This document shows positions 1 to 47,517 of a DNA stretch of 50,324 nt, one piece after another (position 1 is the stretch's first letter; each line of letters opens with the position of its first letter). The stretch covers positions 1-50,324 of the IMG/VR virus record IMGVR_UViG_2681813429_000008. The stretch is one strand, 5' to 3'. The stretch comes from a virus (lineage: Duplodnaviria; Heunggongvirae; Uroviricota; Caudoviricetes). Made by a program: the position numbers and the translations under genes. The notes beneath the pieces are model-generated. The model had not been told where the DNA came from and searched no databases. It saw nothing but the letters and a program-made list of their open reading frames with translations.

Positions 1-1158
1 ATGCTCACCGTTAAGCAGATTGAAGCAGCAAAGCCGAAAGAAAAACCATACCGCCTACTCGATGGTAATGGCCTGTACCTTTATGTCCCTGTGTCAGGGA
101 AAAAGGTATGGCAGCTTCGCTACAAGATTGACGGTAAGGAGAAAATCCTGACCGTAGGAAAATATCCGCTAATGACTTTGCAGGAGGCAAGAGATAAAGC
201 ATGGACCGCGAGGAAAGACATCTCGGTTGGCATCGATCCGGTAAAAGCGAAAAAGGCTTCGTCTAACAACAATTCCTTTAGTGCGATTTACAAGGAATGG
301 TACGAGCACAAGAAGCAAGTCTGGTCAGTAGGGTATGCGACTGAACTTGCAAAAATGTTTGATGACGACATTTTACCTATCATCGGCGGCCTTGAAATTC
401 AGGATATTGAGCCGATGCAACTGCTGGAAGTAATCCGCAGATTTGAAGATCGCGGTGCAATGGAGCGAGCCAACAAAGCCCGCAGAAGATGCGGCGAGGT
501 TTTCCGTTACGCTATTGTCACTGGTAGGGCTAAATATAACCCGGCACCTGACCTTGCTGACGCCATGAAGGGATACCGCAAGAAGAACTTCCCATTTTTA
601 CCTGCCGACCAGATCCCGGCATTCAACAAAGCACTTGCAACATTTTCAGGAAGTATCGTATCGCTCATTGCGACCAAAGTTTTACGCTACACAGCCCTAA
701 GAACAAAAGAGCTTCGTTCCATGCTATGGAAGAACGTCGATTTTGAAAACAGGATTATCACCATCGACGCCAGTGTGATGAAGGGACGCAAAATTCATGT
801 TGTCCCGATGTCAGACCAGGTGGTTGAACTTCTCACTACACTAAGCTCAATCACTAAACCAGTATCAGAGTTTGTTTTTTCCGGGCGCAACGATAAGAAG
901 AAGCCAATCTGCGAGAACGCGGTGCTACTTGTGATCAAACAAATCGGCTATGAAGGTCTGGAAAGCGGTCACGGATTCAGGCATGAATTCAGCACGATTA
1001 TGAACGAGCACGAATGGCCTGCCGACGCCATTGAAGTGCAACTGGCACATGTCAACGGCGGATCTGTACGTGGAATTTACAACCATGCTCAGTATCTCGA
1101 TAAGCGCAGAGAAATGATGCAATGGTGGGCGGACTGGCTTGATGAAAAGGTGGAGTGA
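1..1158 (+). CDS. int: Tyrosine integrase, P4 family (IntC-like)
   Basis: 385 aa ORF. N-terminal KPKEKPYRLLDGNGLYL arm-binding motif and C-terminal catalytic region (HGFRH ... Y) typical of P4-type integrases. Begins at window base 1, so the true start could lie just upstream. Confidence 0.9.
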   Translation: MLTVKQIEAAKPKEKPYRLLDGNGLYLYVPVSGKKVWQLRYKIDGKEKILTVGKYPLMTLQEARDKAWTARKDISVGIDPVKAKKASSNNNSFSAIYKEWYEHKKQVWSVGYATELAKMFDDDILPIIGGLEIQDIEPMQLLEVIRRFEDRGAMERANKARRRCGEVFRYAIVTGRAKYNPAPDLADAMKGYRKKNFPFLPADQIPAFNKALATFSGSIVSLIATKVLRYTALRTKELRSMLWKNVDFENRIITIDASVMKGRKIHVVPMSDQVVELLTTLSSITKPVSEFVFSGRNDKKKPICENAVLLVIKQIGYEGLESGHGFRHEFSTIMNEHEWPADAIEVQLAHVNGGSVRGIYNHAQYLDKRREMMQWWADWLDEKVE

Positions 1159-1266: not shown

Positions 1267-3441
1267 CTATCTAATCCTGAACATTACAATTGGAGCAGAG
1301 CCAGAAGATAAAGGGCCTGACCAATGGTATCTAATTCTGAAAGAAGACTCACTTGGAGTTCCGATAATTTCTATTGGACTTAAAGTTGCACCTTCTGCAG
1401 AACCAGCAGGTTGTCTAAACCCCAACACAGCAATCTGGTTTGGTGTTGGGGCATACAGAAAATTATGCTCAATATCAACCTCGTTAGATTCGCTACCTGT
1501 TGGGTTTGGCATATTCCACTCAATATAATCGTCAGTTGATTTCCCATTTATTGAGTTTCCAACTGTTGCCATAATCGTCCACGTACACGTCCTGTTAAGG
1601 GCTGCCATTCTATCACCTAAAAACCTATTATAACCATTTGCGCCTGAAGTGATTAATCTTATATTCTCTGATGCACATGTGCCAATGCTGTTAAATCCAG
1701 TGCAATCAGAAGAAAGCCCCTTCGCAGTTATATCTACGCTGTTCGCAAAACAAATTGTTGTTGAATTTACTGCATCGCGAATAAGAGCAGAACCCGAAAA
1801 CAAATTATCACACGAACCTCTTATATTATTACCACCGCCGGATAAGTAACATAAATTTCCTTTTATCCTCTTGGATGTAAAAGTAACATTGTTATTGTCA
1901 CCAGTAACAGAAAGAAGCGAGGCTTTAATAGGGGCATTGTCACTCTGCAACTGACCGATTTGGTTTATTGTAACTACATTGTTGTTGCCTGATATAGCTA
2001 TCTGATACCCATCATCATCAATTGAAGGTGAATATCTTTGTGCTTTTATATTGATGTTAAGTGTCCAGATTGTACCGTTATCCAGAAGCATGTCGCGGAG
2101 AGGAGAAATTGAATCGCCAGTGTAGTTATCTGGCATTCTTCCGCACGCCCTGGCTTCTGCGATGGCAACAACACCATGTGCCCCGTTGGTAAACCAGTAA
2201 CCACCTAAACTATTGTCAACACACACGTGCCTCGCATTGAATCGGTTAACACCCAGCGTCTTAAATCCATAGCCATAATACACAGCATATACATGGATGT
2301 AATTTATATCGACATGTCCTGTATAAGGAGACTGATTATCAAGAACAATTCCATGACATGGTTCTCCGGGATAAAGAAGGCTTTGTTGGCTTGTTGCTGT
2401 TAATCTTGCGCTGTAAGGAGGAAGTCCACACAGGCCAAAAACAATATAATCTAGGTTAATATCACCTGGCCCCCTGAACACAACCCCCTCTCTCCCTGAA
2501 ATTCTTCCCGTTATCCTCACTTCAGAGGCGTGTTCCTGATTATCATGAAATGATCCATACCCCTCTGAATAGAGAGCATGTTCTGCAACATTATTAATCT
2601 CAACGTCAATGTGGTACATGCTGCCGAATATTTTAATGGCAGTTCCATAATCATTGTTAACAGTGTCGCAAGTTCTCCATGAGTTTGTATCTCTTTGCAA
2701 GTCAAGATAATTACCATCAATGGTCATATCTTTTATGCTAAATCCATATGGCGCATCAGACAGATTTTCCACAACGCCAAAGCCATGTGTTTTAAATACA
2801 TCTGTATTACTACCTTTTTTAACATACAGAAATGTTGCTCTCTTTCCAGAGCCTTTATGATGAACGCCTGTATAAAGAATGATAGGAGAATCTATTAAAT
2901 AAACACCTGGAGGGTAAAATATTTCCCCGCCACCATTATTAAAAGCAGCTAATGCTGCGGCATTAATGGCATCAGAATCTGATGTCAATCCATCTGCTTT
3001 AGCTCCATAGTATTGAGGTGTTTTCCTGATTGCATCGTAAACCGTTGAAGCGCCGAAACCGATATATTTACTACCATCTGTACCGCCAATAAGTAATTTA
3101 AACTGATCCGGGTCGTACTTCAACACATTAGGAAAATTGAACTGCTGCGCCCCATATGCATCATAAACAGCCATAGAATGGCCTTGCACAGTTACGAACT
3201 TGGCAATCTGTCCGTTATATACCGGGTAACCAGCAGCGTTAATGATGATTGGTTGAGAAACAGGAACGTGAGAGCCGTCTTCGTTCTCCACATAAACCTG
3301 AATCTGGTTTTCTGGATTTACTGGGTCAGTGTCAATTTTACCGATATAAATTTTGCCATTAGCTACGGCTTTAAAAGAGCGGGCCATAGTAAAGAGTTGC
3401 GAAGGCATGCTCACTACAACATTGGCTGTAATGTCTGTCAT
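1267..3441 (-). CDS. Tailspike protein (P22-like N-terminal head-binding domain, divergent receptor-binding beta-helix domain)
   Basis: 724 aa. First ~110 aa ([11 protein letters not shown]...[13 protein letters not shown]...TVQGHSMA) closely resemble the P22 gp9 head-binding domain. The remainder is unrelated to the P22 endorhamnosidase domain. Confidence 0.85.
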
Positions 3442-3499
3442 TTAATTTGCTCCAGATACAAGGAATGGCCGCAGCGATTCATTATTAATCAAAAAATAC

Positions 3500-3512
3500 G
3501 ACCACCGTGGTC
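3500..3512. promoter_or_regulatory. Mnt operator-like palindrome (GACCACCGTGGTC)
   Basis: Near-perfect palindrome resembling the P22 mnt operator core (CCACGGTGG) as recalled, in the 135 bp between the tailspike start and the mnt start. Confidence 0.45.
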
Positions 3513-3576
3513 TTATTGAGGATGCAACCAGCAGATAATAAGATGCCGATCCACTCACAAGAGCGAGGCATCAAGA

Positions 3577-3828
3577 ATGGGAAGAGATGACCCGCAATTT
3601 AATCTGCGGCTACCTTACGAATTAAAGGAAAAACTAAAACAGCGAGCCAAATCCAATGGCCGCTCTCTTAATTCAGAATTAGTTCAGATAGTGACTGATG
3701 CTGTATCAAGGCCATCCAAAATTTCAGGCTATCGAGACGATGCGGAACGCATCGCTGATGAGCAATCAGAGCTTGTTAAGAAGATGGTGTTTGATACGCT
3801 GAAGGATTTGTACAAAAAACCCACCTGA
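3577..3828 (+). CDS. mnt: Mnt repressor (ribbon-helix-helix, Arc/Mnt family)
   Basis: 83 aa. MGRDDPQFNLRLPYELKEKLKQRAKSNGRSLNSELVQIV... closely matches P22 Mnt including the C-terminal ...DEQSELVKKMVFDTLKDLYKK. Confidence 0.9.
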   Translation: MGRDDPQFNLRLPYELKEKLKQRAKSNGRSLNSELVQIVTDAVSRPSKISGYRDDAERIADEQSELVKKMVFDTLKDLYKKPT

Positions 3829-4974: not shown

Positions 4975-6972
4975 CTATTCTGACAACGCATCAGACTTAG
5001 CCCCCTGCGTCAGAGCGTTAATTGCCTTTTGTGCCTGCTGCATGGCTTTCTCAAACGCTGTTGATCCGCGTGGGGTGTTTGCCATTCGGAGCATTGCATT
5101 TCTGAATGGTTCGCTCTCATAGGCGCGAGTAAGAAGTCCGTAGCTTACTGCTGCGCCAGTTGTCGCCGGATTCATTGCCGTCCCATACCCAATAATGAAC
5201 GGGATAGTTTGCTGCCCTGTGGGTGTTGTTACTGCCGCTTTTGCAGCCTGCTGCGTGGATTGCAGATAGTTTTTTAATCCTTTCAGATAAGCAGCGTCCT
5301 GCCCCTTAAATGTGATGCCAGTCTGGTTTTGCAGGATGTTAAGCTGCCGAAGGAACTGGTCAGGGGATCCGCCAGATTTCTCCATCGCCTTTCCAATGAT
5401 GCCATTGCGCATTTGCGCCCTGCCAACACGACCAACTGAGTTATACAGCGTCTTAATTTCCGATTTGTTCTTGCTGAATAGCATGTTGTTGACAACTTCC
5501 GGCGTCAGGTCGCCTTTCATGAGAACATTCTTCAGCCTGGTATTCTTTAGTTTCGCCGCTTCGTCAGCGTAGACGGCATTGGCCTGCTGATATTTACGGA
5601 GAGTATCGTTGCCAAGATTCTGACCAATGGCACCATTGATATCGTCAGTCATTGCCTTGTAAACGCGCTGAATGGCAGCATCGGAACGGTTTGGTAACAC
5701 TGGGCGCTCACCCTTCACGTCCATTCTGAACTGGCTGCGCAGGTCGCTTAATTGCTTCAAATCCAGATTTACCGGACCATCAGGACCAGCATTGCGAACA
5801 AGCTCATCACGATATGACTGAAGTTTTGAAATTGTCTCGTTATCAGCTACCTTACCAAGCTTCTGCAGATTAGATATCTCAGTATCAATCTGCTGAATTG
5901 CTCGCGCAGGCTGAATGTTTACTCCAGCCATAGCATTCTGAACCTGCTCCAGTCGATTACCGGCGGCACGACGAATTCCTGATGTTTTCGCTTTAAGGCT
6001 GTCAATAACAACCGCTGGATCATACTCACCAAATTTATCAGCAAATCTCTGCACCAACTGGCTTCTCGCTTCCTGTTGCGTTGCTCTCATTCCGCTTGTG
6101 CCAGCCAGAGGGATATTTTCTGCTGTAGTCTGCGCCATTTTTCCGACGCGGGAAGTTGGTTGTAACAGGTCTGTGGTGTGCAGAGGAACTCCTTCACGCT
6201 CTGCAAATCTGATAGCCTGCTGCGCTTCTGGCGCAATAGAACCACGAACGCCACGATAAGCAGCACCTAATCCACGTCCGGCAGCGTTAATAGCACCGCC
6301 AGCCAGCACACCAACACCTAAATCGGTGGCGAGTGCTTCCGCATCATCTTTCGCACTATTTGCAGCAAGTGATCCAACTGCGTTTTCTGCGAGAAGGCGA
6401 GTTGCCCCCTGAGCAATTCGACCAGCAAGTGTTGGTGCCTGTGTTGCCGCTCTCTCAACGCCAGCAGGAGTGAGGTAAGGCAATGCTTCAGCAAACACCC
6501 TGCCCTCTGTCGTTTGTGGAGTCAGCGCGCCTTGCTGAAGGCCAAAGTCATGCTCTAATCCCTGCGTTGTTACTCGTGGCGCTGGTTGATATGTACCATC
6601 GCCAATGCCGAGTTTACCGCCAGCCCATGCAGCCGCACTTGTTACAGCATCGGCAACTGATGCAGGTATGTTTGCCACGTTCACGCCAGCCTGCACCAGT
6701 CCGCGACCAGTCTCTTTTACTGCTTCGCCAAGATCAGACATAAGTCCACTTTGCTGTGGTTGTTGCTGTGCTACTGGTTGCTGTGTCTCCACTTGCTGCA
6801 CAGATGGCAATGGATAGGCAGCATAGAAAGCTTGCTTAGCCTGCTCTGCATTTTCTCCGGCTTGCGGGGCCACGACTTCATTGAAGTATTGCTCCTGAGC
6901 CTGCGCTTTTTGTTCTGGTGCTAACGCCTGGTACTGTGGAGAGGCGATAACATCTTTCCATGCTTTAGCCAT
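4975..6972 (-). CDS. Ejection (injection) protein, P22 gp16-like
   Basis: 665 aa. Position and size match P22 gene 16. Last gene of the gp7-gp20-gp16 ejection protein block. Confidence 0.7.
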   Translation of the reverse strand: MAKAWKDVIASPQYQALAPEQKAQAQEQYFNEVVAPQAGENAEQAKQAFYAAYPLPSVQQVETQQPVAQQQPQQSGLMSDLGEAVKETGRGLVQAGVNVANIPASVADAVTSAAAWAGGKLGIGDGTYQPAPRVTTQGLEHDFGLQQGALTPQTTEGRVFAEALPYLTPAGVERAATQAPTLAGRIAQGATRLLAENAVGSLAANSAKDDAEALATDLGVGVLAGGAINAAGRGLGAAYRGVRGSIAPEAQQAIRFAEREGVPLHTTDLLQPTSRVGKMAQTTAENIPLAGTSGMRATQQEARSQLVQRFADKFGEYDPAVVIDSLKAKTSGIRRAAGNRLEQVQNAMAGVNIQPARAIQQIDTEISNLQKLGKVADNETISKLQSYRDELVRNAGPDGPVNLDLKQLSDLRSQFRMDVKGERPVLPNRSDAAIQRVYKAMTDDINGAIGQNLGNDTLRKYQQANAVYADEAAKLKNTRLKNVLMKGDLTPEVVNNMLFSKNKSEIKTLYNSVGRVGRAQMRNGIIGKAMEKSGGSPDQFLRQLNILQNQTGITFKGQDAAYLKGLKNYLQSTQQAAKAAVTTPTGQQTIPFIIGYGTAMNPATTGAAVSYGLLTRAYESEPFRNAMLRMANTPRGSTAFEKAMQQAQKAINALTQGAKSDALSE

Positions 6973-20728: not shown

Positions 20729-21201
20729 ACCTCAATCTCTCTGACCGTTCCGCCTGCTTCTTTGAATTTTGCAATCAGGTTGTCAGCCTTATGCTCGAAC
20801 TGACCATAACCAGCACCCGGCAGTGAAGCCCAGATATTGCTGCAACGGTCGATTGCCTGACGGATATCACCGCGATCAATCATCGGTAAAGCGCCACGCT
20901 CTTTAATCTGCTGCAATGCCACAGCGTCCTGGCTTTTCGGAGAGAAGTCTTTCAGGCCAAGCTGCTTACGATAGGCATCCCACCAACGGGAAAGAAGCTG
21001 GTAACGTCCGGCGGCTGTTGATTTGAGTTTTGGGTTTAGCGTGACAAGTTTGCGAGGGTGATCGGAGTAATCAGTGAATAACTCTCCGCCAACAATGACG
21101 TCATAACCATGATTTCTGGTTTTCTGTCGTCCGTTATCAGTTCCCTCTGACCACGCCAGCATATCGAGGAACGCCTTACGTTGATTATTGATTTCCACCA
21201 T
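20725..21201 (-). CDS. R: Endolysin R (lambda-type lytic transglycosylase)
   Basis: 158 aa, matches lambda R as recalled ([24 protein letters not shown]...). Confidence 0.9.
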
Positions 21202-21508
21202 CTTCTACTCCGGCTTTTTTAGCAGCGAAGCGTTTGATAAGCGAACCAATCGAGTCAGTACCGATGTAGCCGATGAACACGCTCGTTATATAAGCGAGAT
21301 TGCTACTTAGTCCGGCGAAGTCGAGAAGGTCACGAATGAACCAGGCGATGATGGCGCACATCGTTGCGTCGATTACTGTTTTTGTAAACGCACCGCCATT
21401 ATATCTGCCGCGAAGGTACGCCATTGCAAACGCAAGGATTGCCCCGATGCCTTGTTCCTTTGCCGCGAGAATGGCGGCTAACAGGTCATGTTTTTCTGGC
21501 ATCTTCAT
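21185..21508 (-). CDS. S: Holin S (lambda S105/S107 type)
   Basis: 107 aa, essentially the lambda S sequence ([22 protein letters not shown]...), with the dual-start MKM motif. Confidence 0.95.
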
Positions 21509-21749
21509 GTCTTACCCCCAATAAGGGGATTTGCTCTATTTAATTAGGAATAAGGTCGATTACTGATAGAACAAATCCAGGCTACTGTGTTTAGTAATCA
21601 GATTTGTTCGTGACCGATATGCACGGGCAAAACGGCAGGAGGTTGTTAGCGCAACCTCATGCCACCCGCTTTCACGAGGTCATGTGTAGAAGGCCGCAGC
21701 GTAACTATCACTGATGAATTCAGGATAGCCAGTGGCTACGGCTCAGTTA

Positions 21750-21825
21750 TGGTGCTGGTTAACGGACTTGAACCGCTACCCATTCGCTTACAAGGCGACT
21801 GCTCTACCATTGGAGCTAAACCAGC
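21750..21825 (-). tRNA. tRNA with anticodon UGU (Thr-like)
   Basis: Hand-folded 76 nt cloverleaf: 7/7 bp acceptor stem (GCTGGTT/AACCAGC), D-arm GCTC/GAGC, anticodon loop CTTGTAA, T-arm with TTCAAGT loop, encoded 3' ACCA. Confidence 0.6.
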
Positions 21826-21830
21826 ATATT

Positions 21831-21905
21831 TGGCGGGACAGCGTGGACTCGAACCACGATAAGAAGGTTAACAGCCTTCCGTAATGACCTTTATACGACT
21901 GACCC
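21831..21905 (-). tRNA. tRNA-like sequence, anticodon GUU (Asn-like), degenerate
   Basis: 75 nt. Good anticodon arm (GAAGG-CTGTTAA-CCTTC) and T-arm (CGTGG-TTCGAGT-CCACG) and 3' GCCA, but acceptor stem has a T-T mismatch and D-stem only 3 bp. Confidence 0.4.
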
Positions 21906-21968
21906 AAATAAAAAAAGCCACCGTTGCAACTTAAGAGTCACTAACGGCAGCTTACCCTCTAATTATGG

Positions 21969-22487
21969 CTAAATGGCTAATTGCATGTCAAGGCTTTTAA
22001 CAGCAACATGCTTAACTTTCTCAACACGTTTACGCATTTTGAAAGCATTTTGCATTGGTTGGTACAAAACAAATAACGACGCTTTCAGGATGTCGTCAAT
22101 TTCGTTTCTACAGGTTGCCAGTGAAGGCTTTCTCCATCCCTCGCCACCACGTCCACACATCTTGCGTGGCTTTGCAGTCGCGTGATAGTAGGATGCAATT
22201 GCTCGCTTAGATGAACCATGAGCGTAGTAGCTGAGGAGGATTCCAAAGGCTTTCTTGTCAATGCACATGACGGAATCGACGACCTGAGAAATCAACATTC
22301 CATCATCATCATTACACATTGGCCTTGTCATAACTCTTCCCGGCTCTACGCTCTCCATGAACTTCGCTATTACGCTGCTCATGCGCTTTTCCAGACGACC
22401 TGAATAAACCCATGCGCCCCACAGTTCAAGCCAGCCATTCAGCCACTCGTGCTGCTCTTTGGTGAGGTTTAGTTCTCTTATGCTCAT
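21969..22487 (-). CDS. Q: Late gene antiterminator Q
   Basis: 172 aa, upstream of the lysis cassette, last gene of the nin region. Resembles Q proteins of the phage 82/21 group rather than lambda Q. Confidence 0.7.
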   Translation of the reverse strand: MSIRELNLTKEQHEWLNGWLELWGAWVYSGRLEKRMSSVIAKFMESVEPGRVMTRPMCNDDDGMLISQVVDSVMCIDKKAFGILLSYYAHGSSKRAIASYYHATAKPRKMCGRGGEGWRKPSLATCRNEIDDILKASLFVLYQPMQNAFKMRKRVEKVKHVAVKSLDMQLAI

Positions 22488-22672
22488 CGTCTTCCCCTCT
22501 TGCCTTGTTTGACCATCAGGACGCCGTTAACTATTACGTGACGCTCACCTTTGCTGTCTCGGTTGTACTTGAGCACTGTTCCTCTTGCGCAGGAAAGCAT
22601 CCTCGCCACTTCGGGCTGATTGCCTCGTGTCTGGATAAGAAGCTCTGGTATCGTTTGAATTGTGGCGTTCAT
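22484..22672 (-). CDS. ninH: NinH
   Basis: 62 aa; TIPELLIQTRGNQPEVARMLSCARGTV...IVNGVLMV resembles lambda NinH. Confidence 0.75.
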   Translation of the reverse strand: MNATIQTIPELLIQTRGNQPEVARMLSCARGTVLKYNRDSKGERHVIVNGVLMVKQGKRGRR

Positions 22673-39950: not shown

Positions 39951-41126
39951 ATGCTGCTATCTGACATCCAAATAAAAAGAGCAAAACCGAAGGACAAACC
40001 CTATACGCTTAACGATGGTATGGGGCTATCACTCCTGATCGACACAGCGGGCAGTAAAGGCTGGCGTTTTCGCTATCGCTTTGCAGGTAAGCCTAAGATG
40101 ATTTCCTTTGGCGTATATGGCGATGTGTCGTTGGCACAGGCACGTACCAAACGTGATGAAGCGCGTTCGATGTTAGCCAACGGGATAAACCCAAGTGAAG
40201 CCAGAAAAGCAGATAAGATTGCTTTGCAGTTCGCGCATGAGAACAGCTTTGAGTCTGTGGCCAGAGAATGGCACTCATCGAAAAAAGCCACCTGGTCAGA
40301 GGGTTATGCAAAAGAGGTTCTCAATTGTATGGAAAAGGATATTTTTCCTTTTATCGGCCAGCGCCCAATTGAGCAGATTGAACCATTAGAACTGCTAACC
40401 GTCCTGCAAAAAATAGAGAAAAGAGGTGCGCTAGAGCAAACCAGTAAGATCCGCCGCCGCTGTGGTGAAGTGCTTCGTTATGCTGTTGCCACTGGTAGAG
40501 CAAAGTATAATTTTGCACCCGATTTAGCTATCGCACTCAACAAACCTAAAACCCAACACTTCCCGTTCCTGACTGAAAGCGAGTTGCCCGAGTTCGTTAA
40601 TGCTCTGGATAACTATCAGGGCAGTTTAGTTACCAAATACGCCACGCAGCTGTTGATGCTAACAGGCGTGCGAACAATTGAACTACGTGCAGCGGAATGG
40701 GCTGAGTTTGATTTAGATAATGCCTTATGGGAGATCCCCAAAGAACGGATGAAGAAACGCCGCCCCCATCTGGTTCCGTTATCAACTCAGGCGATCAATA
40801 TCCTGAAAAAGCTGCAAGAAATAACAGGGAATTACAGCCTCGTTTTCCCTGGCCGGAATGACGTCAGTAAACCAATGAGCGAAGCCAGCATCAACAAAGT
40901 GATAAAACTACTGGGTTATCACGGTCGGTTAACGGGTCACGGTTTCAGGCATACCATGAGCACCATCTTGCATGAGCATGGGTTTGAAAGTGCCTGGATT
41001 GAAATGCAGCTTGCGCATGTTGATAAGAACTCTATTCGAGGTACTTACAATCATGCGCAATATATTAAAGATCGACAAGTAATGATGGAATGGTACGCTA
41101 GCTTATTAAATACGACCTGCTATTAA
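39951..41126 (+). CDS. int: Tyrosine integrase, P4 family (second copy)
   Basis: Start chosen at ATG MLLSDIQIKRAKPKDKPYTLNDG. Shares the RRCGEV.RYA..TGRAKYN.APDLA and HGFRHT motifs with the first integrase. Confidence 0.9.
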   Translation: MLLSDIQIKRAKPKDKPYTLNDGMGLSLLIDTAGSKGWRFRYRFAGKPKMISFGVYGDVSLAQARTKRDEARSMLANGINPSEARKADKIALQFAHENSFESVAREWHSSKKATWSEGYAKEVLNCMEKDIFPFIGQRPIEQIEPLELLTVLQKIEKRGALEQTSKIRRRCGEVLRYAVATGRAKYNFAPDLAIALNKPKTQHFPFLTESELPEFVNALDNYQGSLVTKYATQLLMLTGVRTIELRAAEWAEFDLDNALWEIPKERMKKRRPHLVPLSTQAINILKKLQEITGNYSLVFPGRNDVSKPMSEASINKVIKLLGYHGRLTGHGFRHTMSTILHEHGFESAWIEMQLAHVDKNSIRGTYNHAQYIKDRQVMMEWYASLLNTTCY

Positions 41127-42056
41127 ATCCAGCATGAAACAAATATGGTGAGTAATTTGATACTGTTTGTTTTTTGGCAACCCAGGGAAATGCCTTACAG
41201 TTGGTTGACTATTGTAATAATAATAGTTAAGACCAATGTTGCTGCCAAACTGGGTTGGATGTTGGGGAACAAGATTTGTAATTTGATCTGAAACATCTAA
41301 AAATTTTGCAGTAACATTTGAACTTCCTCGTTGCGTGTTGCTTGATACAAAATGACGAATCCAAACTGTATTCGCTTGTAAATTCTTGAACACCAAATGT
41401 GCGGCAACAGCAGAAGGTTGACCACCTCCAAGATCTAGTACCTGGCCAGTAATTGTATAATCGCCAAATCCTAAGTAATTTTGTCCCACGAATTGATGTG
41501 CGTGCGTGAAAAGTTCCGGCCCATTATAATCAGCATTTTTTGCTAACTTTCTAAAGTTATCGCTAATAATAATTAACTTCGACAAAGGAAGAAGAGCGCA
41601 CTGATTAGGAAGCATTTTATTATTTAAAACAACATGATAACTAATCAATTGATTTGTCGCCAACAACTGAATATCAGAGTTGGATAATGATGGATTATCA
41701 TATAGAAGTGCAACTCGTCTATTTAAGTTAGCATTCAACCAATTATTAATATCATTAATCGTTGTATTGGGCTGAATAAGATATCCAGAGATGATATTAT
41801 TTTTATTTGTTAATACACTTGATAAATTTTGATTTAAAGTTAAGACGTTATTGTGTGAAGAAAAATCTTCCTGATAAGGATTAAGGATAACAATTATGTC
41901 AGAATTCCAAACATTTAAACATGTTAATAAATTTCTCGTATTGACGTTAATTGGTTCTAAAATTGGTAGCAGACCATTTAGGCTAACTCCCTTCGCAACG
42001 AGGTCCCTAAGGCATAATAACTCTGTACTTCTCGCATACAAATATGGGCTATACAT
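41106..42056 (-). CDS. Hypothetical protein, AT-rich cargo gene B (downstream gene of a two-gene cassette)
   Basis: 316 aa, Asn/Leu-rich, coding GC far below the surrounding DNA. Its 3' end overlaps the integrase 3' end by ~21 nt. No recognised domain. Confidence 0.6.
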   Translation of the reverse strand: MYSPYLYARSTELLCLRDLVAKGVSLNGLLPILEPINVNTRNLLTCLNVWNSDIIVILNPYQEDFSSHNNVLTLNQNLSSVLTNKNNIISGYLIQPNTTINDINNWLNANLNRRVALLYDNPSLSNSDIQLLATNQLISYHVVLNNKMLPNQCALLPLSKLIIISDNFRKLAKNADYNGPELFTHAHQFVGQNYLGFGDYTITGQVLDLGGGQPSAVAAHLVFKNLQANTVWIRHFVSSNTQRGSSNVTAKFLDVSDQITNLVPQHPTQFGSNIGLNYYYYNSQPTVRHFPGLPKNKQYQITHHICFMLDLIAGRI

Positions 42057-42077
42057 AACTTACAACTCCTGAGGATA

Positions 42078-42959
42078 TCAACAAATTTTAATTTTTACAT
42101 CCATCAAATTCATGATGAATTCTTTTTGCTTTCTTGATAATGGTGTTGCATAACCTAAAACACGTAAACATGCTGGAAGAGAATAAATATAATCCAAAAA
42201 AACTTTATCGTTACATCTTTTTTTCATAGCAGAGATAAAGTATTTATTTGCTATGTTTAATGGCATCTGCATGAATATCTCTTTACAATATTCATAAACC
42301 AATCCGTTAGGCATATTTATTTTAGTTGAAGTGTAATCTTCTATTATAGCTAAGAACTCTTCCTTTCTAAGAACTGAAAACAAGCTGTCACTTTTAATAT
42401 AATCAATATTTGAATCTGCCTCCTTAATGACACTCAATTGATCTTTTTTATTCAAAACCATAACTCCCACTCTGGGGAGATTTAAAGCACAATATTTACT
42501 TGCATACTCTGGATGTGTAACTATATACACTTTATCAAAAACATCCAAATAATCAGGGGCTTGAGTAATCAACCTTTTTGGTGAATCATACTCTGTCTTA
42601 ATCTCGTAAGCTGTAGACGTACCATTAAACACCGCAACATCCACTATAGAGTTTTTAATTGGTAACTCTATGGACGACGAACTTGTTTTTGGGCTGTGCT
42701 TACCGAATATTATTTTATTGACAAGTGCTGTCTTATAAACATATTCATTTCTATAATTCAGACGCAAAAAATCATATAATGATGTAAATAAATCCCTTAG
42801 TGAAATCTCATGTTCATTATTATCATTGTTTGAAAACAGTGTTTCATAGCAGTAAGAATCAAAACTCCCAAATAAATCCGAAATATCCTTACCTTTTGCT
42901 AAGGATGAAAAAATGGGGCGACGGAAAAATTTAGCATATTCCTTTTTATTATGACTCAT
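42078..42959 (-). CDS. Hypothetical protein, AT-rich cargo gene A; possible PD-(D/E)xK nuclease-like motif
   Basis: 293 aa. Motif IVDVAVFNGTSTAYEIKTEYD has the hydrophobic-D ... E-x-K spacing of restriction-endonuclease-like folds. 21 nt upstream of gene B. Confidence 0.6.
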   Translation of the reverse strand: MSHNKKEYAKFFRRPIFSSLAKGKDISDLFGSFDSYCYETLFSNNDNNEHEISLRDLFTSLYDFLRLNYRNEYVYKTALVNKIIFGKHSPKTSSSSIELPIKNSIVDVAVFNGTSTAYEIKTEYDSPKRLITQAPDYLDVFDKVYIVTHPEYASKYCALNLPRVGVMVLNKKDQLSVIKEADSNIDYIKSDSLFSVLRKEEFLAIIEDYTSTKINMPNGLVYEYCKEIFMQMPLNIANKYFISAMKKRCNDKVFLDYIYSLPACLRVLGYATPLSRKQKEFIMNLMDVKIKIC

Positions 42960-43638
42960 TACTCATACTCTATAAACATCATGCAATTTGATAAGTTATG
43001 ACGAATTCTCACCATCCAGTTACTACCTGTACATACTAATCAAAAAAAACGAGTACGCAAGATACGAAAGTACTTTTCTTGTTCACCAGTTAGCTTACCT
43101 TGATCCTCACCAGCGACTGGAAGATAGGTAGCAGTATATGTGGAAACCTTCCCCTAGCTAGGTCTACAAACGTAGTTTGGGCATTTAGGCTCCACGATTC
43201 ACGGTTTGACACGGCCTGATATCTGCACATTCGTTTTGATATGCAGCAATCGTGAAAAAGGAAAATATACGCTCGACAGACCAAAACGGCACTACACCGC
43301 ACCCGCCTGCGGTTTTCATATCACTAAAAATTTTCAGCCTGGATTTTTTACAAACGATACCGCCAGTCCGTGCCAGTCCTCGAGATGTACTGCGATACAG
43401 GAACTGAAAAGAATGAAAAGAAATTCATTTTTTTTCAGTTTTACTGTCCGTCGAATCTATGGCCTGAATACGCAACTCTATGATATTAAATGGATAATTA
43501 ATTTTAGGTGTGTGATTTTATGAAGGTTTGTGAAACATGAAGAAGATAACCAGTTGAAAAATAATAATTTTATGACCGTATAAACTGAAATCCTGTGTTC
43601 AGGTTCCGGGAACAGATCGGCCATTCCCGACGCATACT

Positions 43639-43911
43639 TTACCCATTCTTTTGCGCAGCCAGCAGCAACTTTAAAGCCTTTTCCCGTTCCTCGGGTGGAA
43701 TTGCATCAATCAGCTCTTTAACCCTTCCCTGCCCGTTCAGCGCGCTTGGACTAACGGAATGGGAGAAAGCAACATTCATCACAAACGAGTGACCGCACTC
43801 CACATTAGAGCAATAGCAGTACACATCGTACAGTTGTGGGTGTTTCCTGTTTGTTTTACCTATCCGTGCTACTGCCTGACATGTGGGGCAGTACATTCTC
43901 ATCATCTTCAT
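43639..43911 (-). CDS. ogr: Ogr/Delta-family zinc-finger late-gene activator
   Basis: 90 aa with CPTC...C.C...C.H zinc-finger pattern (MRMYCPTCQAVARIGKTNRKHPQLYDVYCYCSNVECGHSF) characteristic of P2 Ogr / P4 Delta. Confidence 0.85.
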   Translation of the reverse strand: MKMMRMYCPTCQAVARIGKTNRKHPQLYDVYCYCSNVECGHSFVMNVAFSHSVSPSALNGQGRVKELIDAIPPEEREKALKLLLAAQKNG

Positions 43912-43979
43912 CGTTCTGTGCCCTATACTGTTGCCCGCCAGAAGAAGGGATTTGGATCCCTACCTCTTGTTCTGAACGT

Positions 43980-44170
43980 GTAACACTGGTAACACGTGTA
44001 ACGCTATTGATTTAAAAGGATTTAATCTGTTACCAGTTAGCAAAATCAAGAGGTAACGCGTGGTAACACACCATTTTTTGTTACCTCTGTTACCAGTCAG
44101 TATTTTTGACTGGTAACACTGAAGAACCGCATCAGTAACGGGTGTTACCTCTGTTACCAGTGTTACCTCA
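43980..44170. repeat. Iteron array (GGTAACAC / GTGTTACC heptamer-octamers, about 12 copies): putative satellite origin
   Basis: Repeated GGTAAC(A/G)C and complementary GTTACC motifs in both orientations between ogr and the primase gene. Resembles the P4 ori/crr octamer TGTTCACC as recalled. Confidence 0.7.
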
Positions 44171-44193
44171 TAAAAATAAGACTCACGCGATAA

Positions 44194-46881
44194 TCACTCA
44201 GGTTCAGCGCTTCCCAGTACCTGTGTATTGAACTGGTACACACGTTTAAGCCCTATTTCTGGCAGGCGAATGCTGTTTTGCGTCCGGCCATCTTCACCGG
44301 GTTTCAGCCAGCCCGCGTCCACACACAACCTGGCCACCTTACGCGAGTCAAATCCCTTACAGATCTCCTTCCAGCCTGACGGGAGAACGTAGAACGTCAC
44401 AACCGGCTCTGTCACGTTGTCTCCTTTATCGACTTTTCTGAATCCCATCATTGAAACAGGCCGGTTCCTGTCGTCATTCCAGTCAGCAAACCGACTGAAC
44501 TGATTACGCGTCATGAAGTCCCGAACCTGTTCAAGTGCCGCTTTATCTTCCTGATTAGCTGTATGGCCCCGGTCAGCCATCCATGCAGCCAGACAGCTTT
44601 GAGCGGCACGAAAGGCCTCTCCCTCCGGCCATCCTGTGATGCCCGCTTTTGTGGCCAGCTCCCCGGCCATCGCAACCAGAGCAAAACGGGTAACAGCCCG
44701 GCCAACCTGATTCCCGGCATTTTCCGGCGTCAGCCTTCGGGTATACTCTTTCAATAAGGCTTTCGCCTGACTGGTCAGTTCCGGCAGATCAGCGGTCAGG
44801 CAATACAGCCAGTCGCGGAATGGTGCACCATGATAATGCGCTACGTGCTGCTCAAGATGCTCAGCCAGGGTTTTCCCGCTACTGAAGCCATGAAGTTCTT
44901 CAAACACGCCATACTTGCCCGAATCGCTTGGGATCTGGATCATTCTGACCTCAACCCCGGCATACGTACGTTCCCCGGCGCTTGCCGCATGCTCTACCAG
45001 TGACAGTTCCCCGGTAGACAGAAACAACAGATTCCAGCGGTTGGTTTCCCTTACCGAACCATCTGTTCTGGCTCTGGCTTTGCCCTGCCCGTTAGCCAGC
45101 ATATAAGCGATATTTCCCGCCTCCCTGCCGTCAACCTCCCGGATTTCATCCAGCATCAGCGTGGCATCATTGCGGCGGCTCGCCGTTCCTTCTAAGGCAT
45201 TCCCCGTCGCCCGCCACGTATGCCAGAAATCTGTTCCACCACATACTGATGCAGCCACTTTCATCGTCGTGGTTTTACCGTCTGTGGATTCCCCTTTGAG
45301 GTGATAACCTCCACCGCCGATACCAACCAGTTTCAGAAGGGGGGCAGCAAATGCCAGACTCACCGCAAAGGCAAGACGGGCATTCTTTATGCAATAACGG
45401 CCTATATTTTCACGCCAGCCCTCTGATGTGCCGCTGACACGAAAATCACGCCCCTGCACACTCGATGTTTGTAAGATGACTGACTGGGCTTCGCGCCCTA
45501 TCACTTCATCCTGGAGAACGTAAACCCCGCCGTGCCAGCCAGTTTTATTCACACAGGTTACTTTTCTGTCCGGTTTACACAGCGAGATATATTCCATCAG
45601 GAATGCTCTGGCCATGCCGTTAATGTTGATGTAAGAAAGCCCGTTAACCAGCAGAACGCGGCGCAGTTCTTCCCCGCTACCGCCCAGCATCTCCATCGGC
45701 ATTGCCCATTTACGGCTGTTTCCGTTGGTATCTTCCCATTCCAGCAAACGCCCGTAATTACTTCCATCAGCATCACTGGTGATTGCCGTCACCCGCAACG
45801 GACTGCAAATTTTGATATTACGTATCTCTGTATCACCATCAGACTTATTAACCAGCTTGTCGTACCACAAATATTCTTTTGTCAGCCGGAACCCTTCTGG
45901 TAAACGGGTCTGCCCTTTGCCATGCAGCGTCATTTCTTCACGAAAGGCATCTCTCGCCCGTTCTTTCCCCACTTCCTGCCGATAATCATCCCAGTCAGCC
46001 TTATGGCGTACCGGAGGGAGCGTTACCCAGCCATCCACCGCTTTGGCGGCTTTCTCTGCCTGAATACGCCCGGTGTTTTCTTTGCCGTCAGCCAGATCAT
46101 TATCTCCGGCCAGAATGATCCGGGTTTCCGGCCAGCGTTTTCGGATCTGCTCCGTCACCTTCAGTAAATTGGTGGCAGCGACAGCCGCCACGATCCATCC
46201 TTCAGTCAGCAGACTGACGGTAAGCGCCGTGGCAAAACCCTCAGTGATAATCACCTGTTCAGGTGTTTCAGCGGGTATATCGGTCAGGGCAATGAATGCG
46301 CCAGACAGCTGGCTACCGGGCAGCAGACTTTTATCCCCGTCAGGATTGATAAGCTGGCCACCAGTAATATTCCCGGAAATATCCGTCAAAGGCAGCAGTA
46401 ATGAACCGGTGGAAAATGTTATTCCGGCCAGATTCAAAGGCTGTGACAGCAAGGGAAGTGAATACCCGTGTAAGCTCTTATTTGTCAGATAGACCGGCTC
46501 ACCATTGCAGGACTGCTGTCTGAGTCTGGTATATCGCTCCGCGCCCGCTTCTTTTCCTGCGGCCTTTTTCCTGGCTGGCAATGCGGGCTTCTCCTGTATT
46601 TCTGGTAATGCAAGCGCCTCAGATACCATCCCGGCGACTTCTTTTATCTTTCTTCCTGTCACCAGACGAACCAGATCAAGACCATCGCCATGACCGCACT
46701 GATTACAAAACCACGTCCCTCGCCCCGCTTTATCGTCCAGTCGAAAACGATCTTTTCCACCACAGGCAGGGCAAGCCCCATGATGTCCTGCGGACGGTAC
46801 TTTAATACCTAATGCTGACAGGATATAAGGCCAGCGCCCAATTGCAGCTCCGGAAATCGTGGATACAGACGGTGTTTTCAC
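44194..46881 (-). CDS. P4 alpha-type primase-helicase
   Basis: 895 aa. N-terminal zinc-binding primase region (CPACGG...CNQCGHGDGLDLV), central Toprim-like region, C-terminal P-loop NTPase (KGESTDGKTT). Confidence 0.85.
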   Translation of the reverse strand: MKTPSVSTISGAAIGRWPYILSALGIKVPSAGHHGACPACGGKDRFRLDDKAGRGTWFCNQCGHGDGLDLVRLVTGRKIKEVAGMVSEALALPEIQEKPALPARKKAAGKEAGAERYTRLRQQSCNGEPVYLTNKSLHGYSLPLLSQPLNLAGITFSTGSLLLPLTDISGNITGGQLINPDGDKSLLPGSQLSGAFIALTDIPAETPEQVIITEGFATALTVSLLTEGWIVAAVAATNLLKVTEQIRKRWPETRIILAGDNDLADGKENTGRIQAEKAAKAVDGWVTLPPVRHKADWDDYRQEVGKERARDAFREEMTLHGKGQTRLPEGFRLTKEYLWYDKLVNKSDGDTEIRNIKICSPLRVTAITSDADGSNYGRLLEWEDTNGNSRKWAMPMEMLGGSGEELRRVLLVNGLSYININGMARAFLMEYISLCKPDRKVTCVNKTGWHGGVYVLQDEVIGREAQSVILQTSSVQGRDFRVSGTSEGWRENIGRYCIKNARLAFAVSLAFAAPLLKLVGIGGGGYHLKGESTDGKTTTMKVAASVCGGTDFWHTWRATGNALEGTASRRNDATLMLDEIREVDGREAGNIAYMLANGQGKARARTDGSVRETNRWNLLFLSTGELSLVEHAASAGERTYAGVEVRMIQIPSDSGKYGVFEELHGFSSGKTLAEHLEQHVAHYHGAPFRDWLYCLTADLPELTSQAKALLKEYTRRLTPENAGNQVGRAVTRFALVAMAGELATKAGITGWPEGEAFRAAQSCLAAWMADRGHTANQEDKAALEQVRDFMTRNQFSRFADWNDDRNRPVSMMGFRKVDKGDNVTEPVVTFYVLPSGWKEICKGFDSRKVARLCVDAGWLKPGEDGRTQNSIRLPEIGLKRVYQFNTQVLGSAEPE

Positions 46882-47288: not shown

Positions 47289-47517
47289 CGCGCATCACTC
47301 CCTTAATTGTGCTGGTTTCCTTAACAACGCCATCCAGTTGTTCGGCAATACAGGCCACTAAAGCCGCAGCGCCTTCCGCTGAAACAGTTCTCGCTCCATT
47401 CACTGTGGGCACGGACAAGACCTCTGCAAGAAACTCACTGGCCAGTGCCGCCCGTAACAGACGACTCTCCCCCTGTTCACTCAATATGCAGCCTTGCTTA
47501 AAATTCATGGATTTCAT
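47281..47517 (-). CDS. Hypothetical satellite protein
   Basis: 78 aa ORF, translationally coupled to its neighbours. Confidence 0.45.
   Translation of the reverse strand: MKSMNFKQGCILSEQGESRLLRAALASEFLAEVLSVPTVNGARTVSAEGAAALVACIAEQLDGVVKETSTIKGVMRDE

Follow-up and report, generated by a model that had tools for sequence, protein, structure and literature searches.

A conserved tRNA-Asn(GUU)–tRNA-Thr(UGU) cassette in the late-operon leader of a P22/Sf6-like prophage

The window, that is, the whole 50,324-base stretch of DNA analysed here, carries a tRNA-Asn(GUU) and a tRNA-Thr(UGU) gene. The two make up a discrete cassette within the untranslated late-operon leader of a P22/Sf6-like prophage. 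Judged by sequence, both are genuine phage tRNA genes, already catalogued as such. Probably they form a functional cassette which would provide nuclease-resistant replacement tRNAs and also contribute to codon supply, the two roles being non-exclusive. As a genome feature the pair is routine: it has been annotated since the sequences of Sf6 and phage 21, and automatic annotation reports it from hundreds of E. coli genomes. Current interest stems from work on anti-phage tRNases. Of the three isoacceptors that PARIS chiefly cuts, the cassette encodes two, including the Thr(UGU) targeted by P2 OLD, and its tRNAs bear substitutions at the mapped cleavage sites. With two genes behind one Q-dependent terminator, it is a simple temperate-phage system in which codon supply can be set against defence evasion.

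Gene calls and fold of the two tRNAs

ARAGORN called exactly two tRNAs in the window, both on the minus strand and both with an encoded CCA: tRNA-Asn(GUU) (21831-21905, 75 nt) and tRNA-Thr(UGU) (21750-21825, 76 nt). Both also matched the Rfam family RF00005 (gathering score 29), tRNA-Thr with 61.5 bits (E 5.5e-11) and tRNA-Asn with 55.3 bits (E 2.7e-9), and in near-identical E. coli prophages the NCBI annotation has tRNA-Thr and tRNA-Asn for the two genes. A preliminary description, made from the letters alone, had placed two tRNA genes between Q and the holin on the late-transcript strand, in agreement with ARAGORN, Rfam and Pfam. Its lengths, anticodons and boundaries (76 nt with UGU, 75 nt with GUU) and its 5-nt spacing are those of the sequence and of the ARAGORN and Rfam calls; ARAGORN, one of the checks it had named, neither missed a gene nor gave other ends or anticodons. 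It had the UGU tRNA followed by the second gene. The spacing stands but the order does not: on the minus-strand transcript tRNA-Asn comes first and tRNA-Thr lies 5 nt downstream, separated from it in our reading of the sequence by the AU-rich spacer AAUAU (21826-21830, minus strand).

The mismatched acceptor stem and weak D-stem ascribed to the second gene were readily located. The acceptor stem of tRNA-Asn contains a single mismatch, U4.U69, and its D-stem consists of three Watson-Crick pairs and U13.U22; further phage-type traits are a 4-nt variable loop and the discriminator G73. tRNA-Thr departs from the consensus as well, at C14, at the non-pair G27.A43 and at the wobble G50.U64, and begins with the acceptor pairs G1-C72 and C2-G71. 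All near-universal positions (U8, A14, G18-G19, A21, U33, G53, U54-U55-C56, A58, C61) are present in tRNA-Asn, and the same set is complete in tRNA-Thr but for A14, replaced by C14. Asparaginyl-tRNA synthetase (AsnRS) recognizes G34, U35, U36 and G73, and threonyl-tRNA synthetase (ThrRS) G1-C72, C2-G71, G35 and U36. Read against these E. coli rules, the two tRNAs of the window contain all of these identity elements.

Position within the late operon

Upstream of the tRNA genes lies an open reading frame for a late antiterminator Q of the phage-21 type (21969..22487, minus strand, 172 aa; Pfam Phage_antitermQ, E 1.3e-25), whose homologue in Sf6 is annotated as "similar to phage 21" Q. A promoter scan placed the late promoter PR' at 21962..21991 (minus strand), overlapping the 3' end of Q, with a -35 element TTGACA, an 18-nt spacer and a -10 element CATAAT (11/12 consensus matches). 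Save for a weak 9/12 site within Q, this is the sole minus-strand promoter site upstream of the tRNAs in the interval 21100-22600. Its counterpart is called PR' in the annotation of Sf6, and in that of phage 21 the pQ promoter. PR' is followed by the qut region and the intrinsic terminator tR' (21906..21958, minus strand), assigned from RNA folding and from the annotation of Sf6 and phage 21. The terminator is a long hairpin followed by UUUUUUUAUUU, which stops one base ahead of tRNA-Asn; it folds with -20.4 kcal/mol (z -4.24), and none of 200 shuffled sequences was equally stable. The Sf6 annotation names tR' and qut in the corresponding leader; that of phage 21 has here an 'aRNA' of ~50 nt, whose end coincides with the tRNA start.

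Downstream of the cassette, the rest of the late leader up to the holin start (21509..21749, minus strand) is common to relatives without tRNAs. Where a locus has the same Q but no tRNAs, its homology to the window picks up again 1-2 nt past the CCA of tRNA-Thr. The first late protein gene is a holin/antiholin of the lambda S family with the dual start ATGAAGATG (21185..21508, minus strand; open reading frame, Pfam Phage_holin_3_1, E 2.4e-30), and its Sf6 counterpart is annotated S107/S105.

Thus, the tRNA pair has no promoter of its own and sits directly after the T-run of tR' in a phage-21-type Q/PR' module. From this placement, synthesis of the tRNAs should need antitermination by Q. RNA polymerase modified by Q would pass tR', and the bulk of the tRNA output would be expected only late in infection. 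The leader would presumably be cut by host RNase P, RNase E and 3' exonucleases, and the tRNAs so freed would then be charged by host AsnRS and ThrRS. A search of the literature on BTP1, on prophage tRNA-Asn/Thr and on the antiterminator turned up no specific expression data.

The position of the genes also bears on the idea that they compensate for a host tRNA gene broken by prophage integration. Many temperate phages insert into tRNA genes. Such a compensation was proposed for HK446 in the preprint on OLD (bioRxiv 10.64898/2026.07.10.737580). For the cassette described here we judge it extremely improbable. ARAGORN and Rfam revealed no further tRNA in the window (att-site fragments would escape both), and a near-identical prophage adjoins ybhC, not a tRNA gene. 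The integrases of the window (1-1158 and 39951-41126) are both distant from the tRNA genes, which are located within the late operon behind a terminator. Moreover, the acceptor and anticodon stems differ throughout from those of host asn and thrU, and the same cassette recurs both in lytic phages and in phages whose integrases differ.

Conservation of the tRNA-Asn gene

The preliminary description had called one gene canonical and the other degenerate, perhaps decaying, which would leave tRNA-Thr as the only functional tRNA. The mismatches U4.U69 and U13.U22 and an Rfam score 6 bits below that of tRNA-Thr are what one would expect of such a pseudo-tRNA. Some relatives do carry rare inactivating variants (C61A, U33C, G73U or the anticodon change GUU->GAU) or an Asn/Gly chimera. 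We analysed the covariation of the stems in a phage-wide tRNA-Asn family. Standard pairs made up 92.3% of the pair cells, and compensatory double changes were detected at 15 of the 21 pairs, a result matched by none of 500 shuffles, while slid controls were paired to 35-50%. Both apparent defects are conserved within the lineage. U13.U22 is shared by 35 of the 36 distinct sequences in the family, and U4.U69 is retained in the temperate sub-lineages GGGUCAG, GGGUCGA and GGGUAGG, which differ from one another by compensatory changes around it (5:68, 6:67, 7:66, 28:42 and other pairs). G34-U35-U36-A37-A38 is invariant in the family and G73 occurs in at least 90% of the sequences. For tRNA-Thr, 95.2% were paired, nine pairs were compensated, and G1-C72 together with C2-G71 was found in 17 of 18 sequences. 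Hence, the cloverleaf folds of both tRNAs have covariation support.

Nucleotide diversity was determined in 43 Q-anchored relatives. The Q-anchored IMG/VR loci are all at least 97% identical in Q; they served for diversity and for presence or absence, being too close for deep covariation. Diversity was 0.0144 for tRNA-Asn and 0.0165 for tRNA-Thr, both below the 0.033-0.054 of the downstream non-coding DNA, and the AAUAU spacer was the most variable segment (pi 0.093). In a separate sample anchored on the D-arm, the major allele of tRNA-Asn was identical in 62 of 119 loci. Phages L and ST64T do have a degraded gene, but it is the one in second place, the Thr position, and their Asn gene is intact. 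Since covariation and population diversity both speak against it, and the conserved positions, GUU anticodon, identity elements and CCA are all in place, we rejected decay of tRNA-Asn as an explanation. The comparative data largely refute it, and we regard it as very improbable. Nor does the contrast of a canonical with a degenerate gene hold, given the off-consensus positions of tRNA-Thr itself. The alternative wording of the preliminary description, a non-canonical tRNA, is the better one and fits both genes. From these comparisons, the odd features of tRNA-Asn are lineage traits of a conserved phage type.

Occurrence of the cassette and its relatives

The tRNA pair was found in 369 of 5,426 complete E. 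coli genomes. A comparison with the cassettes of other phages, as proposed in the preliminary description, recovered the same pair between Q and the lysis genes of phage 21, Sf6, SfI, HK446 and BTP1. Over the 156 nt of the pair these are 99.4-100% identical to the window (100% in HK446), and there is no difference of substance. The annotation of Sf6 records the pair as "similar to phage 21" and gives the same order as in the window (PR', qut, tR', tRNA-Asn, tRNA-Thr, holin), and the window copy is, like that of Sf6, followed by a lambda-S holin, in its case in an E. coli prophage. In Salmonella relatives, similarity to the window stops near the holin start. tRNA-Asn is annotated in Sf6, SfI, BTP1 and E. 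coli RefSeq genomes. SfI was described as having Asn(GUU) and Thr(UGU) in tandem after Q, one or both genes being listed also for Sf6, ST64T, PS3 and p21 (PMC3636060).

The cassette is missing in 32 of 81 phages with nearly identical Q and is therefore dispensable. In one third of the same-Q phages the slot is filled by a non-tRNA module with a long hairpin, of the lambda type, which suggests that the slot favours structured RNA. Together with the position in an untranslated leader straight after tR', this might point to a non-decoding role, in which the tRNAs act as punctuation for processing by RNase P and RNase E or as a stabilizing or structural element of the late leader. We consider such a role highly unlikely. 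Processing alone would need neither an invariant anticodon, nor G73, nor the acceptor pairs for ThrRS, nor an encoded CCA; the same tRNA families are present in the large tRNA arrays of lytic phages, and an identical tRNA-Thr works in trans from a plasmid. A search of the alternative non-tRNA cassettes from this slot against Rfam gave no family at the gathering score. One slot-filling variant showed a sub-threshold match to the hammerhead type I ribozyme (24.7 bits vs 34).

To obtain a rough view of the host range, genome contigs were scanned with the D-arm pattern GTATAAAGGTNATTACGG. The scan gave 61 matches, of which 11 were tRNA-Asn-like. By our own estimate (17 specified bases, 596 Gb, two strands) ~70 matches are expected by chance, and the scan serves only as a rough check. 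The tRNA-Asn-like matches came mostly from Enterobacterales (Escherichia, E. albertii, Shimwellia, Phytobacter, Mixta).

P1, an N4-like phage and Klebsiella phage Mulock also have Asn(GUU) together with Thr(UGU). The Asn/Thr tandem of P1 and the Asn-Ser-Thr genes of the N4-like phage contain both anticodons of the window, adjacent and in the same order. Their Thr genes are ~80-86% identical to that of the window, with G39 common to both sides. In contrast, their Asn genes fall into a different sequence family (GAUGGUG...), one with a canonical D-arm, P1 Asn has UAAUCA at positions 36-41, unlike the Asn of the window, and neither set of genes lies in a Q-dependent late leader. Stx phages such as 933W carry the tRNA genes ileZ-argN-argO between Q and stx. 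These occupy the same lambdoid slot, between Q/PR' and the lysis genes, and their classic explanation is the supply of tRNAs for rare codons. They are, however, Ile and Arg isoacceptors of other sequence, with no link to Thr or Asn.

Codon supply

The same explanation can be applied to the pair studied here. In the late genes ACA occurs at 18.4 per 1000 codons, compared with 5.7 in host core genes (3.2 times), and ACA, ACG and ACU together at 47.2 versus 26.3. As the host reference comprises only 35 core genes, all from a single E. coli strain, these and the following ratios are approximate. Host Thr(UGU) is single-copy (a median of one place per genome), and the Q-dependent late position fits a peak in the demand for structural proteins. 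An ACA bias was likewise reported for SfI and the same argument made (PMC3636060). In its pure form, this explanation holds that functional tRNAs serve only to boost translation of those late structural genes in which ACA and Asn codons abound, any resistance to nucleases being incidental. Asn codons, however, are enriched only 1.3 times (48.8 vs 36.9 per 1000) and the host has four Asn genes; the SfI study could not account for the Asn gene by codon use (PMC3636060). Furthermore, AGA and AGG are enriched 9.3 and 7.9 times, above ACA, yet the cassette contains no Arg tRNA, and these rare codons and ATA, likewise more strongly enriched, are without a phage tRNA. The pair would add decoding capacity for ACA, and less so for AAC and AAU. 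As the sole explanation, codon supplementation appears unlikely, and the results on tRNA-cutting nucleases given below weigh further against it.

Resistance to anti-phage tRNases

The reading that we favour combines this decoding capacity with a role in counter-defence: the phage pair would replace host tRNAs destroyed by anti-phage nucleases. P2 OLD cuts Thr(UGU) after nt 27-29. A plasmid-borne Thr(UGU) of HK446 restored plating of the OLD-sensitive phages HK97, HK542 and Bas34, whereas Thr(UGU) of E. coli gave no rescue (bioRxiv 10.64898/2026.07.10.737580). The tRNA-Thr of the window is identical in sequence to the HK446 tRNA used in this assay. Rescue by the phage but not by the E. coli tRNA argues that sequence matters and not dose alone, contrary to what pure codon supplementation would predict. 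HK446 also encodes a protein inhibitor of OLD, Oad2, and the authors of the preprint doubt that its tRNA is primarily directed against OLD; Asn(GUU) is not among the OLD targets (bioRxiv 10.64898/2026.07.10.737580).

The nuclease AriB of PARIS has Lys(UUU), Thr(UGU) and Asn(GUU) as main targets, Lys(UUU) being the prime and Asn(GUU) a secondary one. It cuts between nt 40 and 41 in the motif U36-A-A-U39-C40, and the exchange U39->A in tRNA-Lys abolishes cleavage (PMC12409363). That the cassette holds two of these three isoacceptors is a further point against codon supplementation alone. Counter-defence would also give a concrete rationale for the Asn gene, the purpose of which earlier authors called unclear.

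We compared the two phage tRNAs with host Thr and Asn reference sequences that had been confirmed across more than 5,420 E. coli genomes. At positions 36-41 the window has UAAGCG in Thr and UAACCU in Asn, where the host has UAAUCA and UAAUCC. U39 is thus missing from both phage tRNAs, and with it the UAAU motif of AriB. Stem positions 27-31 differ at four of five positions in Thr (ACUGA in the host, GUCGC in the window) and at three of five in Asn (GCGGA and GAAGG). G39 was present in all six phage Thr(UGU) examined, including the experimentally active one of T5. By analogy with U39->A in tRNA-Lys, the changes U39->G and U39->C might block AriB, although this extrapolates to another base and another tRNA. 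Lys(UUU) is absent from the cassette and from every temperate cassette sampled; as it is the prime target of AriB, the pair alone should not defeat characterized PARIS. Thr(UGU) is also a target of HepS. Escape from loop-cutting nucleases of the HepS type by mutation of the loop was considered and discarded, as both phage anticodon loops are identical to those of the host.

The isoacceptors Thr(UGU) and Asn(GUU) are shared with nuclease-resistant phage tRNAs that counteract these systems, namely tRNA-Lys/Thr/Asn of T5 against PARIS and Thr(UGU) of T4, Bas32, Bas33 and HK446 against OLD. Akin to these, the tRNAs of the window are altered in the anticodon stem at the mapped sites, Thr having G39 as in T5 and Asn C39. 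They differ in forming a two-gene cassette of a temperate phage, without Lys(UUU), and in lying behind a Q-dependent terminator, not in a large tRNA array. The Asn of the window belongs to a different sequence family from that of T5, and the rescue from OLD was obtained with Thr.

A broader view, which we put forward tentatively and hold to be somewhat less probable than its opposite, is that the Asn(GUU)-Thr(UGU) cassette and its expanded forms (with Gly(UCC), Arg(UCU) and Phe(GAA)) in temperate phages of the phage-21/Sf6/HK446 type constitute a dedicated, swapping counter-defence module. Selection would come from TOPRIM tRNases (PARIS AriB, P2 OLD) that reside on P2 prophages and P4-like satellites of those same hosts, and the oddities of the tRNAs would be adaptive. 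U4.U69, U13.U22 and the 4-nt variable loop of Asn, and C14, A16 and G27.A43 of Thr, would then serve to dodge nucleases while synthetase recognition is kept. The Thr half of the counter-defence view was already demonstrated in the 2026 preprint. What concerns Asn, and the idea of a module, would be new but incremental. Related cassettes add Gly(UCC), which is another target of OLD.

Two tRNA genes in the late leader

In the whole 50,324-base window, ARAGORN calls two tRNA genes and no others, tRNA-Asn(gtt) at 21831-21905 and tRNA-Thr(tgt) at 21750-21825, both on the minus strand. The Rfam tRNA model (gathering score 29) likewise detects both, with 55.3 bits (E 2.7e-9) for Asn and 61.5 bits (E 5.5e-11) for Thr, and the boundaries and anticodons of the preliminary description are thus confirmed. 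As both genes lie on the minus strand, the order in the transcript is Asn followed by Thr. On that strand each gene encodes its own 3' CCA, and a 5-nt spacer (AAUAU) separates them. RNA folding yielded a cloverleaf-like minimum-energy fold for both sequences. In the Asn gene, U4·U69 is the single mismatch of the acceptor stem and the D-stem comprises U13·U22 besides three Watson-Crick pairs, in agreement with the irregularities first described. The Thr gene had been regarded as the canonical partner of a degenerate one, but it is likewise not fully canonical: position 14 is C instead of the nearly universal A, G27 and A43 at the top of the anticodon stem do not pair, and G50·U64 is a wobble. 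Hence, the oddities of Asn stand, while the canonical status of Thr does not.

The cassette is a known, routinely annotated element. The 156-nt pair is 100% identical to that of HK446 and 99.4% identical to those of phage 21, Sf6 and SfI, and the records of many Escherichia and Salmonella phages annotate it as tRNA-Asn and tRNA-Thr. Of 5,426 complete E. coli genomes, 369 contain the pair, and NCBI annotation calls both genes there.

Position and predicted expression of the cassette

Annotation of a near-identical E. coli prophage shows that the window holds a P22/Sf6-like (Lederbergvirus-type) prophage with its late genes on the minus strand; those of the annotated prophage include portal, P22-type capsid, tail needle and tailspike. 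As described before, the tRNA genes lie on this strand between Q and the holin. The Q antiterminator (172 aa, Pfam Phage_antitermQ) is encoded upstream at 21969-22487, and a promoter scan located a near-consensus promoter (TTGACA, 18 nt, CATAAT) at 21991-21962, overlapping the 3' end of Q. Over the next ~50 nt, RNA folding gave a long hairpin and, after it, UUUUUUUAUUU (-20.4 kcal/mol, z -4.24), the T-run ending one base upstream of G1 in tRNA-Asn. Thr is followed by ~240 nt of leader and then by a lambda-S-family holin (Pfam) with the dual start ATGAAGATG at 21508-21185. The Sf6 record lists the same series: PR', qut site, tR' ('late mRNA leader terminator'), tRNA-Asn, tRNA-Thr and holin/antiholin, the tRNAs being annotated as 'similar to phage 21'. 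Akin to this, a short 'aRNA' in the phage 21 record ends at the base preceding the tRNA. The promoter scan found no promoter-like site between tR' and the tRNAs. Because of this result and the layout of Sf6 and phage 21, we infer that the tRNAs would be made by Q-dependent read-through of tR', late in infection. They would then be cut out of the transcript by host tRNA-processing enzymes, as is general in E. coli tRNA maturation.

About ten relatives carry an insertion at the start of this region. At locus L041 of one relative, ~704 nt (3027-3730) separate the PR' -10 hexamer from the late leader, at the counterpart of window ~21955-21961, and include an ORF (3214-3726) for a 170-aa HNH_3+AP2 homing endonuclease (Pfam E 2e-18 and 2e-8). 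The loci L006, L048, L050, L059, L065, L077, L078 and L080 also have the insertion, and L081 shows a related rearrangement. Since the insertion parts the promoter from the qut/tR' leader, it may change Q-dependent control in its carriers.

Conservation of the Asn gene

Its irregular stems had led to the suggestion that the Asn gene is perhaps decaying. An IMG/VR scan with a D-arm pattern retrieved 119 loci, comprising 38 distinct 75-nt sequences; the allele of the window is the major one (62 of these 119 D-arm-anchored loci). After a false hit, an Asn/Gly chimera and a deletion variant had been dropped, sequences were trimmed to 72 nt and four GenBank phage sequences were added, resulting in 36 distinct 72-nt sequences from temperate enterobacterial, T4-like, jumbo and other large lytic phages with tRNA arrays. 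Standard pairs occupy 92.3% of the cloverleaf pair cells, compared to 35-50% with partners slid by 1-3 columns. Changes on both sides were observed in 15 of 21 pairs, and the observed covariation was reached by none of 500 shuffles. The D-arm served as search anchor, so that D-stem variation was impossible in this sample, and U13·U22, found in 35 of the 36 sequences, is a family trait. At 4:69, lytic-phage members have U-A, U-G or C-G. U·U occurs in 19 sequences, all from a temperate GGGU-type clade in which two more members have U·C. The U4·U69 mismatch is kept in sub-lineages with the acceptor 5' strands GGGUCAG, GGGUCGA and GGGUAGG, which show compensatory changes at 5:68, 6:67 and 7:66, as well as in the anticodon and T stems. 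G34, U35, U36, A37 and A38 do not vary, and at least 90% of the sequences have the discriminator G73; these are the identity elements of E. coli AsnRS.

A second sample of 43 loci was picked by Q-protein similarity and is hence unbiased with respect to tRNA sequence. Nucleotide diversity was 0.0144 for Asn and 0.0165 for Thr, 0.033-0.054 for the downstream non-coding leader and 0.030 for the 3' end of Q. Thus, the Asn gene is constrained as much as the Thr gene. Damaging variants (C61A, U33C, G73U, anticodon GUU to GAU, an Asn/Gly chimera) do occur in relatives at low frequency, as is expected for prophages. Covariation, retained identity positions and Thr-like diversity contradict decay of the Asn gene, which we regard as very improbable. 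The Thr family also covaries (95.2% of cells paired, nine compensated pairs), and a change from G5-C68 to U5-A68 is seen among close relatives. In relatives with one aberrant member of the pair, that member is the second gene. On these comparative grounds, both are very likely functional tRNA genes rather than pseudogenes.

In two of the loci L002-L081 from relatives, the Asn gene has the anticodon GAU instead of GUU together with C25U and C61U, and is called Ile by ARAGORN; this could be an anticodon-shifted tRNA or merely an inactivated copy. In the Salmonella phages L cII-101 (L082:1281-1352), ST64T and ST160, Asn is intact and a 72-nt tRNA-like sequence, annotated as tRNA-Leu(TAA), takes the second position. 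This sequence is not called by ARAGORN, scores 42.1 bits with Rfam and has an anticodon arm without the normal 7-nt loop. Overall identity to the pair of the window is 88.6%, and the second gene could be a Thr gene that has degenerated or been repurposed.

A discrete module in the tRNA slot

Of the 81 loci whose Q shows at least 97% identity to that of the window, 49 carry the cassette or a variant and 32 have no tRNA. In the latter, homology to the window ends at the tR' T-run and restarts 1-2 nt past the Thr CCA; the cassette is a discrete module. Other occupants of the slot in relatives are Asn alone, Asn-Gly(UCC), Asn-Phe-Thr, Asn-Thr-Arg(UCU), Asn-Phe-Thr-Arg-Gly and, in Klebsiella phage Mulock, Asn-Phe-Thr-Arg(UCU). 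Asn(GUU) and Thr(UGU) are also neighbours in P1, and in an N4-like phage they are found with Ser between them.

The 32 phages without tRNA carry a non-coding module in place of window 21750-21905 (L003:3083-3374, L018:3078-3240, L025:3083-3259, L026:3083-3232, L028:3078-3510 and L047:3079-3278, for example). In its ~18-bp stem, CACAACAGGUAAGAGCAYU pairs with AGUGCUCUUAUCGUUGUG; the hypervariable insert at the apex measures ~30 nt in short variants and considerably more than 100 nt in the longest. Folding gave -34 to -36 kcal/mol (z about -4.5 to -5.4), and the right-hand (3') flank is 100% identical to the phage lambda late leader. No Rfam family matched the module at gathering score; L003:3104-3150 has a sub-threshold hammerhead type I match (24.7 bits versus 34, E 7e-4).

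Hybrid genes were also observed. An E. albertii locus (L242:~5552-5710) contains a Thr(UGU) gene with a phage 5' half and a near-host-thrU 3' half, followed by Gly(UCC), and at L103 and five other IMG/VR loci the 5' part of Asn is joined at the T-loop to the 3' end of Gly(UCC). These hybrids suggest recombination between tRNA genes via their conserved T-arms.

Possible benefits: codon supply and evasion of tRNases

Codon usage of the late genes (window 1267-21508) was compared with 35 core genes of an E. coli ST131 chromosome. ACA is 3.2 times as frequent (18.4 versus 5.7 per 1000 codons), UGU-readable codons amount to 47.2 versus 26.3 and Asn codons to 48.8 versus 36.9 per 1000; the host has one gene copy for Thr(UGU) and four for Asn. 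Codon supply thus suits Thr reasonably and Asn weakly. AGA, AGG and ATA are enriched 9.3, 7.9 and 2.5 times, yet the phage has no Arg(UCU) or Ile tRNA; related Klebsiella cassettes, unlike that of the window, do have Arg(UCU). Supply of codons as the only benefit appears rather unlikely.

P2 OLD is a tRNase that cleaves after nt 27-29 and depletes Thr(UGU), Gly(UCC), fMet, Val(UAC) and Pro(UGG), Asn not being among its targets (bioRxiv 10.64898/2026.07.10.737580, July 2026 preprint). Plasmid-encoded Thr(UGU) of T4, Bas32, Bas33 and HK446 brought plating of OLD-sensitive phages back near wild type, and E. coli Thr(UGU) had no effect on OLD restriction; HK446 also has a protein OLD inhibitor, and a lifestyle-related role was proposed for the tRNA (bioRxiv 10.64898/2026.07.10.737580). 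Since the HK446 pair is identical to that of the window, the rescue is direct experimental evidence on the window's Thr sequence, and for the Thr half the connection with anti-phage tRNases has already been published. This activity in trans, together with the invariant anticodon, the identity elements and the CCA, argues against a processing or structural role without decoding, for which we see only a slight chance.

For AriB, the tRNase of PARIS, a conserved U36-A-A-U39 motif adjoins the cut site, U39 to A abolishes cleavage of tRNA-Lys, and U16 is proposed to be read (PMC12409363). Full PARIS rescue requires the T5 Lys, Thr and Asn variants jointly (PMC12409363; PMC11464382). We compared verified host sequences with phage sequences at positions 36-41 and stem 27-31. 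Thr(UGU) reads UAAUCA and ACUGA in the host, and UAAGCG and GUCGC in the window; Asn(GUU) reads UAAUCC and GCGGA in the host, and UAACCU and GAAGG in the window. G39 is found in all six phage Thr(UGU) genes compared (window, Mulock, P1, N4-like, KpF5 and T5), and the window's Thr has A16. The cassette thus encodes two of the three main AriB targets and the Thr(UGU) target of OLD, each changed at the mapped sites. That G or C at position 39 would block AriB is extrapolated from U39 to A in tRNA-Lys. Related cassettes add Gly(UCC), another OLD target. Lys(UUU), the main target of AriB, is absent from every temperate cassette sampled, so the pair alone should not defeat the characterised PARIS system. 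The anticodon loops equal those of the host, and loop-cutting nucleases such as HepS would consequently not be evaded. Absence of the cassette from a third of the same-Q phages also counts against counter-defence. We consider the chances evenly balanced that defence evasion is a main selective reason for the cassette. The tRNase link has some topical interest and offers a plausible reason for the presence of the Asn gene. Both genes probably encode functional, late-expressed tRNAs whose benefit would combine nuclease-resistant replacement with codon supply.

Integrases and a satellite-like element

Two P4-type tyrosine integrases (Arm-DNA-bind_3, Phage_int_M, Phage_integrase) flank the P22-like prophage at 1-1158 (+), directly adjoining the tailspike gene, and at 39951-41126 (+). 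No tRNA attachment-site gene was detected in the window. The near-identical prophage of another strain has a different integrase and ybhC as its neighbour. Integration at the attachment site could have disrupted a host tRNA for which the tRNA genes compensate, but this is extremely improbable, given that the window contains no further tRNA, that the near-identical prophage adjoins ybhC and that the cassette is embedded in the late operon.

A separate integrated element resembling a satellite occupies the right 10 kb of the window (~41100-50324), with the integrase at 39951-41126 at its left boundary. It encodes a Toprim+DUF927 primase-like protein (44194-46629) and a P2-family major capsid protein (48192-49196), as well as genes that carry the annotation sce7725/sce7726 where E. 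coli ST131 genomes have the identical sequence. C4 antisense RNA (47772-47859, Rfam 81.1 bits) and the Hfq-binding RNA isrK (47940-48017, 68.9 bits) are both on the minus strand, and a 196-aa ORF called across them (47514-48104) is probably spurious.
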